DNA of 64,000 bases from Eledone cirrhosa (lineage: Eukaryota), in assembly GCA_964016885.1 (NCBI GenBank), contig OZ024744.1, positions 35,154,001-35,218,000 of the forward strand, in the 5' to 3' direction. A model generated the notes under the pieces. That model was not told where the DNA came from. It was given only the letters and a program-made list of their open reading frames with translations, and made no database searches. Made by a program: the position numbers and the translations under genes. Each line of letters starts with the position of its first letter. The stretch's first letter is position 1. Of the stretch, positions 17,030 to 61,679 are shown one piece after another.

Positions 17030-18345
17030 CATCATCATCATCATCATCATCATTCTACGTCCATTCTTCCACGCTAGCATGAGTTAGATGGGTTGTCAGG
17101 TTATGTGACCATGTCTTGCTTATAAAGAACTGATTTTGGCTTGATTTCTACAGCTGGATGTTCTTCCTAACACCAACCTCATTTACAGTGTGTACTGGGT
17201 GCTTTTTTACTGTGGTGCCTACATAACGACTTTAAAGTGTGAACTGGATGTTTTTTGTCATGACACCTCCATGACCACTTTATAGTGTGGACTGGATGTT
17301 TTTTGTCGTGACACCTCCATGATCACATTACAGTGTAGACTGGATGCTTTTTGTCGTGACACCTCCACGACCACTTTACAGTGTGGACTGGATGCTTTTT
17401 GTCGTGACACCTCCATGACCACTTTACAGTGTGGACTGGATGCTTTTTGTCGTGACACCTCCACGACCACTTTACAGTGTGGACTGGATGCTTTTTGTCG
17501 TGACACCTCCACGACCACTTTACAGTGTGGACTGGATGCTTTTTGTCGTGACACCTCCACGACCACTTACAGTGTGGACTGGATGCTTTTTTGTCATGAC
17601 ACCTCCACGACCACTTTATAGTGTGGATGCTTTTTTGTCATGACACCTCCACGACCACTTTATAGTGTGGACTGGATGCTTTTTTGTCATGACACCTCCA
17701 CGACCACTTTATAGTGTGGACTGGATGCTTTTTTGTCATGACACCTCCACGACCACTTTACATTGTGGTTTGGATGCTTTTTTGTCATGACACCTCCACG
17801 ACCACTTTACAGTGTGGACTGGATGCTTTTTTGTCATGACACCTCCATGACCACTTTACAGTGTGGATTGGGTGCTTTTTGTCGTGACACCTCCATGACC
17901 ACTTTACAGTGTGGACTGGATGCTTTTTTGTCATGACACCTCCACGACCACTTTATAGTGTGGACTGGATGCTTTTTTGTCATGACACCTCCACGACCAC
18001 TTTATAGTGTGGACTGGATGCTTTTTTGTCATGACACCTCCATGACCACTTTACATTGTGGTTTGGATGCTTTTTTGTCATGACACCTCCACGACCACTT
18101 TACAGTGTGGACTGGATGCTTTTTGTCGTGACACCTCCACGACCACTTTATAGTGTGGACTGGATGCTTTTTGTTGTGACACCTCCATGACCACTTTACA
18201 GTGTGGACTGGATGCTTTTTGTTGTGACACCTACACAACCTCATTACAGTGTGGACTGGGTGCTTTTTGTTGTCACATCTCCAGGACCACTTTGCAGTGG
18301 GAGGGGGTGGGGGCATATTGTCTATATGCTTCAGTTTCGGCTTGT
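17030..18345 (-). repeat. RTE 3'-UTR segment whose internal 48-49 bp unit is expanded to a minisatellite of about 23 copies (~17190-18300)
   Basis: Unit GGACTGGATGCTTTTTGTCGTGACACCTCCACGACCACTTTACAGTGT repeated head-to-tail without spacers; flanks match the RTE tail at 13960-14310. Confidence 0.9.
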
Positions 18346-19254: not shown

Positions 19255-19770
19255 TATGATGGACATATGGTTTGGATGTCTCAGGAAAGAATCTCTGAAT
19301 TGAGAGATCACAGCTCCGATTCTATGGACATATGGTTTGGATGTCTCAGGAAAGAATCTCTGAATTGAGAGATCACAGCTCCGATTCTATGGACATATGG
19401 TTTGGATGTCTCAGGAAAGAATCTCTGAATTGAGAGATCACAGCTCCGATTCTATGGACATATGGTTTGGATGTCTCAGGAAAGAATCTCTGAATTGAGA
19501 GATCACAGCTCCGATTCTATGGACATATGGTTAGAATGCCTCAGGAAAAAATCGCTGGACATATTTTACGGGCAAAACCAATTGGCAGGAAACCCAAGGA
19601 CAGACCATGAGCAAGATGGTTGGATAACATCCATGAGCTTGGCTGGTCTCGCTTGGAGATCCAGTCGGATCAGTTGGAGATTGTTGCTTCTGACAGGACC
19701 CACTGGAAGGAGTGTTTGAGGACTCTGCCCCTACAACCCTCTCAGGAATAAGTGGGCAAAGAAGAAGAAG
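19255..19770 (+). repeat. Four tandem 65-bp units fused to an RTE 3' end
   Basis: GGACATATGG starts at 19261, 19326, 19391, 19456 and 19521, then continues into sequence homologous to 8190-8430. Confidence 0.9.
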
Positions 19771-23014: not shown

Positions 23015-23884
23015 TATACTGCATTCATCTCTCTCTCACCTCCACTCACTCACATAACTCATCATCATCATTGTTTGACATCCATTTTTACATGCTAGCA
23101 TGGGTTAGATGGTTTGTCCCATGAGAGACAAGTCAGGTCAGATGACTGTCTCTTACTCATATAGAACTGTTTCTGTCTAGGTTTCTACAGCTGGATGCCC
23201 TTCTTAATGCCAACCACATTTACAGTGTGTGCTGGGTGCTTTTTGTCGTAACACCTAAACAACCACTTTATAGTGTGGATATATATTTATATATTCAACA
23301 ATATTTTAGTTAGGCAGAGAAATGCAGTACTCATGAACCTTGTTATGGAACCTCTGAGACTGTTGGGAAGGAAGGTATTCCCAAACTTGAGACCTGGTTC
23401 AAATGCTTGCAATTGAGTGGACTCTGTTATAGCTACCTAACAACCAGGTAGTAGGGTTAAACTGTGTGATGGATTAAGTCTACTACATAATTCTGATAGT
23501 ATATGATCAAATTATCTGGTAGAGTTTAATGTAGAAACAGACAAAATGGACTTAATTAATTAATTCCGACCTAACCCAATCCTAAGTGATAATTCTGGTA
23601 CCATGACAAAAAGCACCCAGTCCACTCTGTAAGTGGTAGGGTTGGTGTCACAAAAGAAAGCACCCAGTCCACCTTGTATGATGGTAGTGTTGTTGCCATG
23701 AAAAATGCTCCCAGTCTACTATGTAAGGTGGTTGGCATTAGGAAGTGCATCCACATAGCAAACCAAGCCAAAAAAATGGAATTTAGGAACAAGACATCAT
23801 CATCATCATTATCATTGTTTAACGTCTATCTTCCATGCTAGCATGGGTTAGACGGGTTTGTCCCATTTAGAGGCAAGTTGGGTT

Positions 23885-24640
23885 GGGTGACCATGTATCG
23901 CTCATATAGGACTGTTTCTGGCTGGTTTTCTATGGCTGGATGCCCTTCCTAGCACTAACCACATTTACAGTGTGGGCTGGGTGACCATGTATCACTCATA
24001 TAGGACTGTTTCTGGCTGGTTTTCTATGGCTGGATGCCCTTCCTAGCACTAACCACATTTACAGTGTGGGTTGGGTGACCATGTATCGCTAATATAGGAC
24101 TGTTTCTGGCTGGTTTTCTATGGCTGGATGCCCTTCCTAGCACTAACCACATTTACAGTGTGGGCTGGGTGACCATGTATCACTCATATAGGACTGTTTC
24201 TGGCTGGTTTTCTATGGCTGGATGCCCTTCCTAGCACTAACCACATTTACAGTGTGGGCTGGGTGACCATGTATCGCTCATATAGGACTGTTTCTGGCTG
24301 GTTTTCTATGGCTGGATGCCCTTCCTAGCACTAACCACATTTACAGTGTGGGTTGGGTGACCATGTATCACTCATATAGGACTGTTTCTGGCTGGTTTTC
24401 TATGGCTGGATGCCCTTCCTAGCACTAACCACATTTACAGTGTGGGTTGGGTGACCATGTATCGCTAATATAGGACTGTTTCTGGCTGGTTTTCTATGGC
24501 TGGATGCCCTTCCTAGCACTAACCACATTTACAGTGTGGGCTGGGTGACCATGTATCACTCATATAGGACTGTTTCTGGCTGGTTTTCTATGGCTGGATG
24601 CCCTTCCTAGCACTAACCACATTTACAGTGTGGGCTGGGT
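23885..24640. repeat. Eight tandem 94-bp units derived from an RTE/SINE tail
   Basis: GGGTGACCAT starts at 23885, 23979, 24073, 24167, 24261, 24355, 24449 and 24543. Confidence 0.95.
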
Positions 24641-25413
24641 GCTTTTTGTATGTATATATATATATATATATATACATAACATGTCATATATATATATAAT
24701 CTATGCTGGCATGGAAAAAAGATATTAAACAGTGATGATGATCAAGATGATGATCAAGATGATGATAATGATGATGATGATGTTCTTTTTTTGGGGGGGC
24801 GGGGCATAATTGGCAACATAGCTCTAAAGCTTAGATTTCATTATCAACATCATCATCATTTTACGTCTGCTGTTCCATGTTTACATGGGAGCTTTGCTAG
24901 TGAAGGCACTAACATTTGGTGCTAAATGTTAAGAAATCAATATTTTGGTACATGGAAAATATTTTTATCACTTTGTTCACAGCAACAAATATATGGCACA
25001 TTAAACAAGTAAGTATCTGTAGCCTCAGGTTGACAAAAAGTTTTGTTAGTGAAATTTGATGGATGGAACATATTTTGAAGCCTGTTAGTGGTTGTACTTT
25101 TGTTTTAGAATAGCAAGCATAATCCATTCAACTGGTCCTTAAGTATCTTTAGCAGAGTCCACTTTATTGCAAGTATTTCAATTGAAGATGACTCATTTTT
25201 AAAAAATCCTATTTGTCCTGGGGGCACTAGTCACTGCTTTAGAGATAACTCCTTTTTTCTTTTAGTCCCATTTGTCATGGAAGTCCTGAAAATGGATCAT
25301 GGGAATTGCCCTTTTTTTTTCTAATTAGGACATTTAAAAAAATGCATATAAACCATTTCTTCATTTTTTAATTGTATTTTTTTGCTTTCAATTCAAACCG
25401 GTTTATTGTTCAG

Positions 25414-36589: not shown

Positions 36590-37200
36590 CATTCTCACAC
36601 ATGGCCTCACTAGCCACCCCACTACCATGCGCAGCCCTAACACGGTTAGTGTTATTGCTGTTAACACAGTTCTTTTTGTGCGATTGCTTGATGATAGTCA
36701 GGGGGTTCTCGCACATGGCTGCACCAGCCACCCCACTACTCTGCACAGCCCTAACATAGTTAGTGTTATTGCTGTTGACGCAGTTGCTGCAATTCTTATT
36801 TTTGTGCTCATAATTTTGGCATTTATTATACTGGTTGGATGCCCTTCCTAACACCAGCACCACTTTTCAGCATGGACTGGGTGCTTTTATTCGTGCCACC
36901 AGCACTAGAGACATTGTCTTAGTGGACTCAGGGTCCCTCTTTACCCCTCCATTTTACAGCATGGACTGGGTGCTTTTATTCGTGCCACCAGCAGTAGAGA
37001 GGTCATCTTACTGGACTCAGGGGCCCTTACCACCCCTCCATTTTACAGCATGGACAGGGTGCTTTTATTCATGCCACCAGCATTAGAGAGGTCATCTTAC
37101 TGGACTCAGGGGCCCTATCCACCCCTCCATTTTACAGCACGGACTGAGTGTTTTTATTCGTGCCACCAGCCCTAGGGAAGTTGTCCTACTGGACTTGGGG
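36590..37200. repeat. Short tandem duplication (~115 bp x2) followed by a ~88-90 bp minisatellite (~4 copies)
   Basis: agccaccccactac..cagccctaaca..gttagtgttattgctgtt occurs twice; ttttacagcatggactgggtgcttttattcgtgccaccagc is repeated. Confidence 0.75.
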
Positions 37201-44465: not shown

Positions 44466-44520
44466 ACTGCTATATATATTTCGGTGACAGCCATCATTGG
44501 CTGTGACCTCTTCAGGCAGT
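44466..44520 (-). ncRNA. Type I minimal hammerhead ribozyme (family Z)
   Basis: actgc-CUGAAGA-ggtcacagcca(atga)tggctgtcacc-GAAA-tatata-UA/gcagt; palindromic loop 3. Confidence 0.8.
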
Positions 44521-45812: not shown

Positions 45813-45867
45813 ACTGCCTGAGGAGGTCACAGCCAAAGATGGCTGTCACCGAAATATATATAGCAGT
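45813..45867 (+). ncRNA. Type I minimal hammerhead ribozyme (family Z)
   Basis: actgc-CUGAGGA-ggtcacagcca(aaga)tggctgtcacc-GAAA-tatata-UA/gcagt; predicted cleavage after 45862. Confidence 0.8.
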
Positions 45868-49326: not shown

Positions 49327-49387
49327 TATTTTATCTGATGAGAGCGTACCAAAGTGTTGGTACCCTTGAAATATATATAATAGAATA
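49327..49387 (+). ncRNA. Type I minimal hammerhead ribozyme (family Y)
   Basis: tattttat-CUGAUGA-gagcgtaccaa(agtg)ttggtaccctt-GAAA-tatata-UA/atagaata; 8-bp stem I; predicted cleavage after 49379. Confidence 0.8.
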
Positions 49388-49470
49388 AATATGGTTTTAT
49401 AAATATAGTTTATATATATATATATATATATGACAAGTAAGTATGTTTTGAAACAGTGAGCAGGTTTGAA

Positions 49471-49778
49471 ATTAGAAAATAGAATAGCTTTCACCGTATT
49501 TTTTACTAAAGAAATTTTAGGCTGATAATGGGGTTTAGAACCCTCAGATAAATGGAAAAAGATGAGTATTGACGTACATGGGAGTCGAACCCACATCTTT
49601 GGTTATCCAGACCACTGTGCTAATGGTAGCACAGTGGTCTGGATAACCAAAGATGTCGGTTCGACTCCCATGTACGTCAATACTCATCTTTTTCCATTTA
49701 TCTGAGGGTTCTAAACCCCATTATCAGCCTAAAATTTCTTTAGTAAAAAATACGGTGAAAGCTATTCTATTTTCTAAT
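49471..49778. repeat. 152-bp-arm snap-back palindrome centred in a tRNA-like sequence
   Basis: 49471-49622 is the reverse complement of 49627-49778 (1 mismatch seen, 4-nt loop); contains B box GGTTCGACTCC followed by TTTTT. Confidence 0.9.
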
Positions 49779-49796
49779 ATATATATATATATATAT

Positions 49797-50509
49797 AATA
49801 AGATGTTGTGAAACACTCCAAAACTGTCTAGTTGTTACTAGGCGATTGCCCAATATAGGTCTGTTATTTTTCTTAATTTAATATTTAAAATTAAGTCTGA
49901 CAAACCATATTGCTGTAGTTAGTATTTTTTCACCCTAACAAACTTGGTCCTTACGATTCGAACACATGTATGTTTATATTAGTGTTCATCTCTCTTGTTT
50001 ATTCAATTATATTGTACGGCTCAGAAAAGCTTTTTTCTTAGAGTTATTTAATTGTAAGAGACTACTCTGAGTTTCTAACTCACTATATATTTGTTGGCTC
50101 CATCACGTAGAGCTAATTTTAATGTCCTGTTAACCAGGCTGCTTATTTTAGCGGCATGGAATTTTGAGACATGCTGGGTTCCGAAGACACGTGTGATAAT
50201 TCTTATCGCACGCAATTCAGTCTATAATATTTTTAGAAGTGGAAGGATCACTAATTTCTCAACAATTACTGAGGAGCAGAGAAAAGAGTGGACTTCACTT
50301 AATAAGATGTTGCGAAACAGTCTCCAAAACTGTCTAGTTGTTACTAGACGATCGCCCAGTATACGTCTGTTATTTTTCTAAATTAATATTTAAAATTAAG
50401 TCTGACAAACCATATTGCTGTAGTTAGTAGTTTTTCACCCTAACAAACTTGGTCCTTACAATTCGAACACATGTATGTTTATATTAGTGTTCATCTCTCT
50501 TGTTTATTC

Positions 50510-50517
<8 letters not shown>
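49797..50517 (+). mobile_element. Non-coding retrozyme-like element: ~216-bp direct repeats overlapping a hammerhead, inserted in (TA)n
   Basis: 49797-50012 is repeated at 50301-50517; HHR cleavage-site equivalents at 49828 and 50334 (506 nt apart); no recognisable protein. Confidence 0.7.
50261..50342 (+). ncRNA. Canonical type I hammerhead ribozyme (family W, GUC cleavage triplet)
   Basis: aacaatta-CUGAGGA-gcag...ttgc-GAAA-cagt(ctccaaa)actg-UC/tagttgtt; 8-bp stem I, 5-bp stem III. Confidence 0.85.
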
Positions 50518-50552
<35 letters not shown>

Positions 50553-50554
<2 letters not shown>

Positions 50555-50990
50555 TAAAAGGTGCAGAGCACTAGAAGTCAATGGAAACCGCGGAGTGGGG
50601 AGACCCAAGAAGACCTGGGATGAGGTGATAAAAGCCGACCATACCCAATTAAACCTCTCAAAGGCGATGACACACGACCGTGACCTCTGGCGTCACGCAG
50701 TAATACAGAGTACCCGACCTCCCATGGGTACAAGCTGACGCATATAGACAATATGCCCTCACACCCTCCCACTGCAAAGTGGTCGTGGAAGTGCCACGGC
50801 AAAAAAGCACCCAGCACTCACTGTAAATGAGGTTGTTGTTAGGAAGGGCATCCAGCTGTAGAAATCAAGCCAAAATCAGTTCCTGTATGAGCAAGGCATG
50901 GTCAGCCGACCAGACACTGCCCACAACAGGACAACCCGTCTAACCCATGCTAGCATGGAAGAACGGACGTAAAACGGTGATGATGATGAT
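50553..50990 (+). mobile_element. RTE LINE 3' end (same subfamily as 13960-15582)
   Basis: KRCRALEVNGNRGVGRPKKTWDEVIK plus 3' UTR and (TGA)n tail. Confidence 0.85.
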
Positions 50991-54266: not shown

Positions 54267-54327
54267 TTTATCTGACGAGGACGTACCAGAAAAAAAAACA
54301 CAGTACCTTCGAAATATATATAATAAA
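54267..54327 (+). ncRNA. Type I minimal hammerhead ribozyme (family Y, second copy)
   Basis: tttat-CUGACGA-ggacgtac(loop)gtaccttc-GAAA-tatata-UA/ataaa; predicted cleavage after 54322. Confidence 0.72.
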
Positions 54328-56968: not shown

Positions 56969-59900
56969 ATTCAGTGGTGACAGTCAAGTTTGCAATTTTC
57001 AACTGTAATGAGATGGCTAAAATCTGTGCCTTATATACAGTAAAAAAGGGTTACAGAATGCTAAGTTTTGCAAACTGTATTTCGAGCAATCGTTGTGTGG
57101 TTTCACTAGATTACTAAAACTGATTGGTTTAGGCATCTCGGTTGGTTGAGCATGTTTAACGACTTCTATTTGACCCTATCCAAAGCATTAATTTTTTTGC
57201 TATTTTTAGAAATGATGAAAAGAGCATTTCCTAGGGTTTTAAAAATCTTCAGTAATCATCACCATCAACATCAATGTTATTATTATTATTGTTGTTGTTG
57301 TTGTCAGTGGTGGTAGTCGACATGGTCGTTGGCGTAGTCATTTAGCTTGGGTTTGAATTTATCAATAAAATTCTTTTCTTTAATTTCGGGTCTCTGATTT
57401 GCTGGCGGTGCACCCGTGCACGTTCCAATAGTGCATTTCCAGTTTGACCGACATATATTTCTTCACAATTCGGGCATTTAATGCAATAAATTAGATTTCT
57501 GCTTTTCCAGTTCATATTTGCATTTGGGAATATTTTTCCAGTTTTTGTGTTCATATATTGACCAGTGTGTATGAATTGACATGTGCCACATCGACTATCA
57601 TTGCATTTAGATACAGTGAATGATTGGTCTTTGTTGTTAAGGTCAAACTTTGCCTATGTTAGTAATTGATTCAAATTTTTCGGCTGTCTTTTACTAAGAG
57701 TCAAAGATCAGTCTGTGATTAAACCTTTTAATTCATTACTTTGAGCAATGATCGGTAGGTTTGCTTTGGCAGGGTTGAAGATATTCTGGTGACATGGGTT
57801 GTGTGTCATTATAAATGGTATGGCCAGTTCTTGGTTTCTTCTTTCTTGGGTTGTCCTAAGTTGTTGTATAGGTATTTTTATAGCTCGCTGTATGCCATTT
57901 TCTATAAGTAGAGATGGGTATTTTTGTTTCAGCAAAAATTCTCTCAGTTCTGTTAGGCGTTTGTTCCTGGTATTCGTATCTTCTACAATGGTACAAACTC
58001 TTCTGGATAGACAGTATGGGATGTTGCGTTTTGTATGAGGTGGATGGCACGACTTAAAATTTAGATATTGATGGGTGTCTGTGTGTTTATAATATATATC
58101 CGTGGTAATGGTGGTGTCGTTTGTGATTACCATTATATCTAGGAATGGTAATTTGGTACTACTCATCTCTTTTGTAAATTGGAGAGATGGGTGTAGGTTA
58201 TTCAGGAGGATATTGAACTCATCCAGAGTATCTAGAGATTCTGTCCAGATGATGAAACAGTCGTCAAGGTATCTCTTCCAAGACTTTTCAATGTAATTTC
58301 TAAATTCAGTGCTATATTTTTCCTCTAAATCTTGGTAGAGTTATTGTTCTAAGTATCCCATTACAGAGTTCACGTAAACGGGAGCAAACTTCGTTCCCAT
58401 CGCTGTGTCTCTAATTTGGATGTAATTCTTTCCATTGAAGAAAAATGTGTTGTTTTCCAGAATAAGTCTGACTGCGTCTAATATAAATGGCATTGTGAAT
58501 CTGGTGGGAATCACTTCTCTATGTTTTTCCACCCAGTATTTAACCGCCTTTATTCATAAATCATGTGTAATGTTGGTGTAAAGGCTTACCGCATCAAAAC
58601 TAAGTAGAAGTGAATTTGTTTCCGTGGTTTTGGGAAGATGGGACAGGAAGTCGATATCATCCCGGATGAAACTGGGTATGTGAATACATAGTGGTTTCAA
58701 AATAATGTCAACAAAATTGCTTAGACGGTGGGTGGGCATGTTGGACCAGCTATAATAGGTCTAAGTTTTAAGTCTTTTGGGTGTAGTAATTTAATGTACT
58801 CACTTTTTTGTTCTTTTACTGCAGGTTGTATTTCTTATGAACTTTCGGTAGGCCATACAGGTTGCTGGGTTTTGGCTCAAAATTGGTGATGTAGTCTCTT
58901 TCATTATTAGTAAGTGAGTTGTAGTATTTTGAAGCCAGGTTTTTGATCTTCTTCATGATGTTGTGGTCTATATTTGACGGTATTTCATGGTAGAATGTTT
59001 TGTCTTTCAGTTGTTCCTCAACCAAATATTTGTAGTATTCAGCATCCATTATAACAACTGCAGCCCCTTTATCTGCTTGTTTAATTATTATTGTTTTAAC
59101 ATTTTGTATACGTTTAAGTGCAGACATTTCCGATTTGTTAATGTTTGGCCTAACATTAATATTACAAGTAAGAATAAATTTAGACAGGATATCAATGTTT
59201 TGGTCGAGATAGATATTTCTTCCTTTTGGTGGAGTGAAATTTGATTTATTCTTTACTAGTGATTCATCACTCTCATTACTTTTATCAGCGAAGAATTCTA
59301 CAATGCGTAATTTACGACAGAATTCTTGGGTATCCTCCTTTAGTTCTTGGTGGTTGACTGTTGGAGTCAGTGTGAATTTCAGTCCTTTTGACAAAATTTG
59401 CATTTCATCATTGTCAAGATCTCTTTTGGGTAAATTACTTATTTTAGGATCTACATGTTCAATTGTTTTGGGTATGTTTCCTCCTGGAGTTTTTGTTTTT
59501 CCGGTTTTTGTTGTCCTGACGTTAAAAAATGGATTTTTCTCTGTTCAGGATTTATATTCCTGTTGGTGTTTGCTTGATGAACTTTTGGTTGTGATATTAT
59601 ACTTAGTTTCGTTATTTTTTGTCCTATTTTTGGATTATGTATATTATTTTTCCATTTCTTGTTAGCATTATTTTTAACAATCTGGGAAAATGACCTAGGT
59701 TTGCTTTCAGGTTTAGATCGTTTTTTTGCCCAGTTTCTTGTGGGTAGTCTCTGTTGAGATCTTGAAAGTAATCTGGTTATTCTACGGATTTTTTCCCTGT
59801 TCCGTGTGGCTAGTCTCTGTTGAGATCTTGAGAATGATCTCCTGGTTTTACTACTTCTCATGGTCTGGTCAAAGGAATATCTATCGTGTTTGCGCTTTTT

Positions 59901-60998
59901 GTTCATGTTGTGTGCGTTAGGGTGTTTTTGTAGAAAAAACGAAGAATTCTTACCGTAGTCTTCTTTGATTCAAGGTAAGGTGAGTGTTTGTGTTGCCACA
60001 TGTTCTGGCGTATGTTGTGTTGGTGAGATTGTCCACTTTTAATGCATTTTCTCAGAGTTCCAGAGTCTTTACTGTAATTTGCAGCATATTCGTCGAGAAA
60101 TAATTGTTTCTGCTGCCAAAACTTTCTTGATTTGCTTTCTTCTTTTGAGATATCTCTGATCCATAGTTCTCGTAGTTTTTCAGCTATATTACCAGTCATT
60201 AGCTTTGAAATTTCGACTTCAATTTGGTCATCAATAGCTTTGTATTTGGTTTTGTAGCGGGATTGTTTACATTGAGAAATGGAGATGTCAGTCCTGAATT
60301 TTGTTAATGTAAGTTCCCATCGGAGTTTTGTTTCTTCTTCTGGCTCTCCCGCAATTTCTTTAATTAGGTATTTACGAGGGAGTATGGGTGCCGTCAGAGA
60401 GAGCCATTTCGAATGTGTTTCGACATATTTTTCGCATTTGTATGCTTTCCAGAAGTTTTGGTTTCTTATGTTAAGAAATATTTTCCATGTCATCCACATT
60501 TCTTTTCTTATTCGATGTGTTTTGTTTTCCAAATTTCTTTCGTTTAGTTCTGACGTCCAAGGGGGTTGTGGTAGGCTTTCTCTTGTATCTTTGATAACTG
60601 TTGGTATAATTTCAGCTAAATTCTTAATTTCAGAGTTTATATGTTCAGTTATAAGTTTTCCGTCTGTAGATTGTTTTTCTATTTCCTTTAAAATAGAGGA
60701 TTGTGTGTCAATCATCGTGATAAGTGTTGATAATTTCGATGATATCTCCTTTAGAATTCTTTCTGATTCTATTGATTTCATTTGTTGCTTTCCAGACATG
60801 TTGGCATACACACAATAGGAATATAGATATATAGATATAAATAAATATATACGGGTGTGTATGATTGTGTATAGAAGATTATATTAATAAAAGGAATTCG
60901 AACTTTGTCTGATTTACTCGTTTTATTTACAATCCTTTAAAATTATAATGGTATTATAATGAAATAGTATGGTAGAATATTAAATGTTAAATGTTAAT

Positions 60999-61037
60999 TG
61001 AACAAGTACTTTCATGCTTTCGCGATCTTCAGGTTCA
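60999..61037 (-). ncRNA. Minimal hammerhead ribozyme in the Penelope 5' pseudo-LTR
   Basis: tgaac-CUGAAGA-tcgc(gaaa)gcat-GAAA-gtac-UU/gttca. Confidence 0.65.
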
Positions 61038-61679
61038 TATTCAATAGTGACAGTCAAGTTTGCAATTTTCAACTGTAATGAGATGGCTAAAATCTGTGCC
61101 TTATATACAGTAAAAAAGGGTTACAGAATGCTAAGTTTTGCAAACTGTATTTCGAGCAATCGTTGTGTGGTTTCACTAGATTACTAAAACTGATTGGTTT
61201 AGGCGTCACGGCTGGTTGAACATGTCTAACGACTTCTATTTGACCCTATCCAAAGCATTAATTGTTTTGCTATTTTTAGAAATGATGAAAATAGCATTTC
61301 CTAGGGTTTTTATAAAAAATCTTCAGTAATCATCACCATCAACATCACTTTTATTATTATTGTTGTTGTTGTTGTTGTAAGTGGTGGTAGTCGACATGGT
61401 CGTAGGCATAGTCATAGTAGGAGTAATACCCCTAAGCATTATTATTGTTCATTTAGCTTGGGTTGGAATTTATCAATAAAATAGTTTTCTTTAATTTTTC
61501 TCTTGATTTCACTTGGGCTGTGTAGTTTGTAGAATGAAAATATTATAAATATTTTCTGACCACATGTTGCTAGATGGTTACTCAGGGGTATCTGACGGAC
61601 ATTTGGGTCTCTGATTTGCTGTCGGTGCACCAGTGCAAGTCCATCTTTCAGTCTAAGTTGGCTAACCTCAAGCAACTTT

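Follow-up and report, generated by a model that had tools for sequence, protein, structure and literature searches.

Within the window, the 64,000-nt stretch of Eledone cirrhosa DNA analyzed here, sequence reading and self-alignment identify an insert of ~720 bases (49797–50517, plus strand) that consists of 1.4 head-to-tail units of a non-coding repeat. It lies between a left (TA)n target tract (49778–49797) and a right one (50513–50556); a preliminary description of the locus had reported both the 1.4 units and the two TA tracts, and both are seen in the sequence. The two repeated segments are ~95% identical over ~215 nt by alignment and share two rare alleles, the local GC content is 0.34–0.35, and the longest stop-to-stop frame is 100 aa. 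The insert opens with a 5′-truncated upstream round (49797–50012) that holds the damaged 3′ half of a hammerhead, with a cut motif ending at 49828, and a terminal domain running to a position we refer to as site A (49999–50012). A 78-nt tail (50013–50090) then extends from start site A to start site B (50077–50090), and in inverted insertions this tail is present at only one end. The non-coding unit interior (50091–50260), with small hairpins common to several families, is followed by a complete type I hammerhead (50261–50342) and by a second terminal domain (50335–50517), whose start site A (50504–50517) forms the 3′ end of the insertion. The two cut-site motifs, after 49828 and after C50334, are 506 nt apart and delimit a cut-to-cut unit of 506 nt at this locus (49829–50334). 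This unit, which had been called larger than typical, does exceed the 150–450 bp given in PMC7229834 but falls within the 51–972 bp of a 2026 preprint (Li, Clavereau and Pollet, 10.64898/2026.07.22.740005); these and all further papers are cited for the parts of their text that were covered. The unit is predicted to fold more stably than shuffled sequences (z −3.3 linear, z −4.6 circular), with the minus strand doing so equally, and the two interior hairpins named earlier both appear in its predicted fold.

A script located the complete hammerhead with the features previously given for it: CUGAGGA at 50269–50275, GAAA at 50314–50317, a cut after 50334, a stem I of 8 bp (50261–50268/50335–50342) and a stem III of 5 bp. 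Stem I includes one G·U pair, private to the window copy, at 50266, and the 4-bp stem II carries a 30-nt loop. The word ‘canonical’ is apt for the core but not for the loops, and an Rfam scan gave no match at the gathering score. The first A of GAAA, core position A13 (50315), is intact at this locus, yet it is the most often altered site of the family. As for the second hammerhead 3′ half, its cut motif is indeed present, but the CUGAGGA strand is missing, C11.1 is changed to U, and stem III is short by 2 nt, so that the locus lacks two consecutive complete ribozymes, the arrangement by which the 2026 preprint recognizes ‘active’ elements. The complete ribozyme also carries private changes, including downstream ones that favor a competing hairpin, and is predicted to misfold; in a local 96-mer, the predicted share of the active fold is ~1e-7 for the window copy vs 4e-4 for the family consensus. 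Release of a 506-nt monomer from this locus, as the preliminary description had predicted, is unlikely, and any circle would come from other copies.

The repeat is dispersed in the 3.0-Gb genome of the same species and not single-copy, as a genome-wide search that had been proposed as a check made clear. This search returned 2,428 candidates, of which the best 40 were scored; a 24-base motif from the 3′ end has at least 539 exact matches, the exact ribozyme core has 119 where a backwards control pattern has 0, and relaxed core patterns add 1,762. A set of 130 loci, fetched by the full unit, the 3′ motif or the intact core and with four widened, was reduced to 109 by dropping 21 that overlapped. 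The family consensus unit is 510 nt long, with a range of 503–522 nt in 9 loci. A total of 65 full monomers form six clusters, each with at least two members, with 67–88% identity between clusters, and the focal repeat is one of at least six ~500-nt families in a hammerhead superfamily. One sister group carries a U4A core with 655 exact genome matches (examples are loci L225, L229, L230, L233 and L254), and its stems are intact and covary; the covered parts of PMC3088659, which do not extend to its figure, do not name U4A. This group offers a ready natural variant for a cleavage assay. Four further loci (L242–L245) represent more long-loop hammerhead families, in which we found neither a match to the focal profile nor a linked ORF. 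Between families, the best conserved portion is the tail, which carries two conserved hairpins, and site A is predicted to lie within a multiloop closed by a helix that pairs the tail with the region upstream of A. The modeled structure of tail and site A is a candidate element for recognition by a reverse transcriptase (RT). Compensatory pairs outside the ribozyme, at 0–2 per helix in the six consensus units, provide only a hint.

The ends of the copies are highly ordered. Of the main arms of the 109 loci, 47 have their 3′ end at site A, 54 at site B (78 nt further) and 8 at other positions; among loci selected on the ribozyme alone, 42 of 47 likewise end at A or B. An adjacent inverted arm occurs in 63 of the 109 loci, with an end elsewhere in 18 and both ends defined in 45, and all 45 of these pairs combine one A with one B. 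Because 101 of 109 ends are at A or B and every defined inverted pair has one of each, the ends are not random permutations. Instead of the circularly permuted ends proposed earlier, the copies have two Penelope-type start sites at which their 3′ ends are fixed, and variation is confined to the 5′ ends: these are scattered, with breakpoints that do not pile up at one position. A (TA)n tract adjoins the 3′ end in 94 of 109 loci and the 5′ end in 64, and in contigs built from short reads of a single sample (three runs), loose TA ends recur at sites A and B and coverage is biased toward the 3′ end. That the repeat is a local tandem duplication or satellite unit, not spread through RNA, is extremely unlikely; the two rare alleles common to both rounds at the window locus would fit such an origin, but copies dispersed over many contigs, the coverage bias, 5′ truncation, inversions and (TA)n targets all speak against it.

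The same anatomy is known from Penelope-like elements, which form partial tandems and inverted 5′ copies, frequently with a tail on just one end (Craig et al. 2021, PMC8557442), and whose tail is defined in vitro by two internal RT starts, with both strands extended (Frangieh et al. 2024, PMC11167929). Within this genome, the 25 loci examined of a coding RT/GIY-YIG family end at A (10), at B (14) or elsewhere (1), and 6 of its 7 inverted loci have opposite ends. Mobilization of the focal repeat by Penelope-type machinery is very likely. By its sequence, the repeat is a non-autonomous Penelope-type element (non-LTR retrozyme) of a known kind, and the family and end data agree with the earlier reading that a helper RT spreads a retrozyme-type element which is non-coding, carries a hammerhead and exists in many copies. 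For this element type the helper has so far been proposed from co-occurrence and homology alone; here the copies themselves bear the two-start, one-tail signature of Penelope, with coding and ribozyme-free families of the same genome as controls.

Fixed ends, a tail and inversions are also what coding Penelope-like elements have, which raises the possibility that the unit is merely the pseudo-LTR (pLTR), that is the 3′ end, of an autonomous element, and the insert a truncated piece of it. The preliminary description had named this as a refuting case; the ends are indeed fixed, but no coding sequence is attached to any examined copy. Five probe proteins were used to look for an ORF joined to the upstream side of a copy, and none was detected in 80 focal loci (counted before duplicates were removed), 50 superfamily loci or 30 loci chosen by the tail; what few ORF pieces occur near copies are downstream, on the opposite strand or separate, and element matches near copies are separate insertions in TA tracts. 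Long copies, moreover, wrap into the unit’s own 3′ end, and the 5′ breakpoints share no common pile-up site. A helper sharing the 3′ end was likewise not found among the approximately seven coding families sampled, which are a small part of the candidates. One search, for the GIY-YIG family, scored the best 150 of 10,595 candidates and examined 50 loci, and another, for a divergent endonuclease, covered 25 loci with 33,635 candidates. As only part of these ~10,600 and ~33,600 endonuclease candidates was examined, and as UTRs were ended at the first TA run in the comparison, so that some true 3′ ends were possibly missed, the pLTR reading retains some probability, but we consider it very unlikely. 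Identity with an autonomous Penelope-like element was rejected, as no linked RT and GIY-YIG ORF is present in the loci examined. Loci L261–L285 belong to a young coding Penelope-like family with 33,635 candidates, 96–97% protein identity, a ~65–85-nt tail and the same one-end rule.

In its workings, then, the focal repeat resembles non-autonomous Penelope-like elements, and its sequence has the features expected of metazoan non-LTR retrozymes (Cervera and de la Pena 2020, PMC7229834; Li, Clavereau and Pollet 2026). Its tandem units, like theirs, are AT-rich and non-coding, each with a single type I hammerhead; the monomer is structured, and the repeat occurs alongside Penelope-like elements, put forward in both papers as helper or origin. 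It differs in being dispersed as insertions of 0.1–2.8 units and not as long arrays, in its 5–7-bp stem III, long loop II and a ribozyme predicted to be blocked in the circle, and in its two starts, tail and inversions, which the covered text of those papers does not describe. The preprint argues that retrozymes are derived from Penelope ends. The focal family, known here from sequence alone, lacks homology to the sampled autonomous 3′ ends; the preprint’s main text, its supplements aside, mentions no molluscs, tails or inversions. With endonuclease-bearing Penelope-like elements (PMC8557442, PMC11167929), the repeat shares partial tandems, 5′ truncation, an inverted 5′ arm, a tail at one end, the (TA)n target, a hammerhead upstream of the 3′ end and two internal RT starts, but it contains no ORF, its tail measures 78 nt instead of 30–40, and its ribozyme is of a monomer type and theirs of a minimal dimer type. 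Both of its start sites show TA-like microhomology, whereas the starts of the anole Penelope element have no homology with the DNA that is cut. Among Chlamys elements, non-autonomous members such as MRC1 (PMC8557442) are also Penelope-type, with pLTRs and head-to-tail insertions, but they generally have 3′ sequence in common with their helper, and canonical hammerheads are absent from most of them. Plant LTR retrozymes, for which we follow PMC7229834 and the preprint, resemble the repeat in having a hammerhead-flanked non-coding unit whose fold is predicted to block the ribozyme; their type III ribozyme, their LTRs (which come with a PBS and PPT), the target duplication of 4 bp and the Gypsy helper do not fit the anatomy seen here, and identity with them is ruled out by the type I topology and the Penelope-type ends. 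For cephalopods, 235 hammerheads have been counted, and only counted, in the giant squid (PMC6962438). In the literature covered, which leaves out most subscription papers and the repeat databases, neither the focal family nor a hotspot like that at A13 is described.

Several observations bear on the RNA template. Of 25 arms that arrive at a cut site in the least biased set, 21 pass it and 4 halt within 6 nt, a modest excess at most, and locus L024 is the sole copy starting exactly at the cut. The junctions at cut sites are seamless, with indels at 2 in 511 bases compared with 285 in 33,220, in keeping with the earlier suggestion that the template continues past the cut site. Across 39 tandem pairs, 71 of 614 comparisons at 41 diagnostic sites are mismatched vs 49% between loci, which identifies the rounds of a tandem as rounds of one haplotype. 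No position-specific difference between rounds occurred more than 3 times in one direction, and a diverged linear master was rejected as the source for want of such differences. Locus L008, where the rounds resemble different subfamily haplotypes (5 of 15 diagnostic mismatches), suggests a template switch between two RNAs.

From these data we propose that the window copy is a 5′-truncated 1.4-unit insertion, likely made by the RT and GIY-YIG endonuclease of an autonomous Penelope-like element. The endonuclease would nick (TA)n on both strands, and the RT would start internally on the RNA, at either site A or site B; both have a 5–7-nt TA-like stretch able to anneal to the target. The RNA template would be continuous across the ribozyme cut site, most likely as a ligated circle: rare two-ribozyme copies would release the monomer, a host ligase would close it, and the RT would circle it more than once. 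A circular template, as put forward in PMC4209133 and PMC7229834, is plausible in that it accounts for the end, junction and haplotype data, which do not require it. We lean slightly toward this complete explanation, and with a similarly narrow preference toward the circle as the usual template.

The insert adjacent to the focal one shows why tandems alone do not settle the matter. It spans 49432–49778 and contains an inverted repeat of 152 bp that is near-perfect and, on one side, a tail of ~40 nt, indicating a young Penelope-type insertion; its unit is 260 bp long, tRNA-like (Ser-like at a relaxed threshold; at its default threshold ARAGORN found no tRNA gene in the window) and has no CUGANGA on the sense strand. 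The 260-bp family has 1,193 candidates with copies 95–99% alike, and in 20 loci (2 of them duplicates) it forms tandems of 1.2–4.2 units with two ends and inversions. A family without a ribozyme thus produces tandems of this length and a matching end pattern, which counts against the circle explanation, and the greater-than-unit length of the focal insert does not by itself imply a circle made by a hammerhead, as had been supposed. The identical anatomy of this neighbor family would equally fit the same non-autonomous Penelope-type element copied from uncut linear read-through transcripts of tandems, with occasional template jumps rebuilding the tandems and no circle, and with the ribozyme carried along or used at another step. 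In vitro, Penelope insertion does not need hammerhead cleavage, and uncut RNA is the main substrate (PMC11167929); the predicted misfolding of the ribozyme points the same way, and young, identical source tandems would also give matching rounds. Nevertheless, 5′ truncation is heavy, with 5 of 58 arms in the least biased set exceeding one unit, and the longest copies reach ~2.5–2.8 units with no longer array among the matches listed. Tandems must for this reason be rebuilt, and linear sources would shrink. The seamless cut-site junctions also argue against a linear template, as do stems that covary between families 67–88% identical, and we regard it as rather unlikely.

The covariation is evident in compensatory changes of stems I and III between families. 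In 21 ribozymes picked from the superfamily, 89% of stem cells are paired, and 47 double-change cells were observed vs 14.9 in shuffled alignments, with 0 of 500 shuffles as high; two of five covariation measures did not rise above shuffles. The invariance of the core among these 21 is circular evidence, because most of them were found by core patterns. The active fold is the predicted fold in none of the six family circles, a strict scan found no locus with two intact ribozymes among the 109 focal loci, and 16 of 183 arms span at least two cut sites; a sister locus (L253) has two near-intact hammerhead motifs 515 nt apart. The U4A-core family reached its 655 exact copies with a changed core, which speaks against the proposed explanation. 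Conversely, A13 is the majority base in every family consensus despite its loss from about one third of the copies, from which we infer selection for the ribozyme in source copies; this retention suggests that ribozyme activity is selected there, and ribozyme function is probably necessary for spread.

The loss of A13 is conspicuous. In 63 arms not selected on the core, this base has 20 substitutions (G 11, T 8, C 1) and 5 deletions, compared with 211 substitutions in 9,112 background A bases; after subfamily correction its variability ranks first of 508 sites (33% vs a median of 2.8%). Its rate exceeds background ~10-fold and that of CpG sites three- to fourfold, and other A bases after CG are mostly changed in 2–9% of arms, with one at 22%. 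Genome-wide, variant patterns gave 135 matches for A13 and 50 for A14, with 5 and 8 for controls, and a hand count of the focal family on contigs 1–4 yielded 64 intact cores, 27 A13 substitutions, 3 A14 substitutions and 5 deletions (p 6e-5). Hand counts over the first 159 Mb of contig 1 gave 2 variants vs 56 intact in sister families with the same 11-base context and 3 A13 variants vs 39 intact in the U4A group, although one subfamily of U4A is likewise hot, at 4 of 8 unselected. Among other hammerheads, from seven families in flanks or coding elements, A13 is altered in 2 of 86. The changes are rarely shared: 8 of 15 tandem pairs include an A13 variant, and none of these 8 shares it between rounds, whereas 2 of 5 unselected inverted pairs do share one. 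The nearest neighbor carries a like change for only 4 of 24 A13 variants (shuffle 2.3, p 0.25, with a duplicated locus left out), compared with 43 of 54 for a diagnostic site; among the 14 arms with G, 0 have another G arm as nearest neighbor. A13 changes are mostly independent between copies. The A13U arms of L008, L028 and L117 may share an ancestor, which would mean that a dead ribozyme has spread.

Two simple causes were rejected. A-to-I editing gives neither T nor deletions and, as both are present, fails as the sole cause, and selection against active ribozymes alone fails because the other core bases are not hot. A cause without RNA modification, namely a DNA-level hotspot set by wider sequence, structure-induced RT error or partly assembly error, has in our view about an even chance. 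One point in its favor is age: a less-corrected test of A13 substitutions looked flat (9 of 31 younger vs 11 of 32 older arms), but the better-corrected one found A13 altered in 8 of 31 younger and 14 of 32 older arms, a ~1.6-fold higher rate in the older that is CpG-like and leans toward a clock (p 0.19). Discordant rounds would fit mutation after insertion equally well, and the variant share is lower in short-read contigs. Against such a cause stand the size of the excess over background, CpG sites and most other A bases after CG, the cold sister families with the same local context, and the recurrence of A>G at A13 in 5 short-read contigs in each of three runs from one sample.

Alternatively, the RT could misread a modified adenosine (m1A-like) at A13, each pass independently giving A, G, T or a deletion, with the ribozyme silenced in the circle; we put this somewhat short of an even chance. 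It would account for the alteration of 25 of 63 arms at the top-ranked site, for the discordance of all 8 variant tandem pairs, for the preponderance of A13 over A14 in the contig 1–4 count and for the coldness of both the sister families with the same context and the other hammerheads. The context of A13 differs from the usual T-loop methylase motif, which counts against it. The mix of G and T with low C matches the RT signature of m1A followed by A (PMC4787781). On the other side, the age test leans the other way, a check for RT stops found no pile-up of 5′ ends at A13, and A58 of the tRNA-like family, a positive control for misreading of a modified base, is A in 33 of 33. In the short-read contigs, furthermore, A>G at A13 makes up 2–6% of depth and A>T is not listed, with the proviso that such contigs drop rare variants. 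That all parts hold together, with a ~510-nt circle spreading the family, a host m1A-like modification of A13 silencing the hammerhead and a Penelope RT misreading it in about one third of passes, seems to us unlikely. If it were true, the genome would be a fossil record of RNA modification in which only A13-keeping copies found new rounds. PMC7229834 leaves open what, other than pairing, must block the ribozymes of animal circles; such a modification would supply the answer and demonstrate an in vivo need for the ribozyme. The loss of A13 provides, in any case, a cheap test of how such ribozymes are silenced in vivo.

The window holds further elements of related kinds. A near full-length coding Penelope-like element with RT, Cys motif and GIY-YIG, frameshifted, occupies ~57340–61660 on the minus strand and has ~92% protein identity to the ORF at locus L064. 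Four minimal type I hammerheads with a palindromic stem III belong to other abundant families and lie at 45818–45862, 49335–49379 and 54272–54322 on the plus strand and at ~44471–44515 on the minus strand. Minisatellite arrays with a shared repeat motif are found at 17182–18299 (48 bp), 19259–19557 (65 bp), 23879–24641 (94 bp) and 36860–37195 (89 bp).
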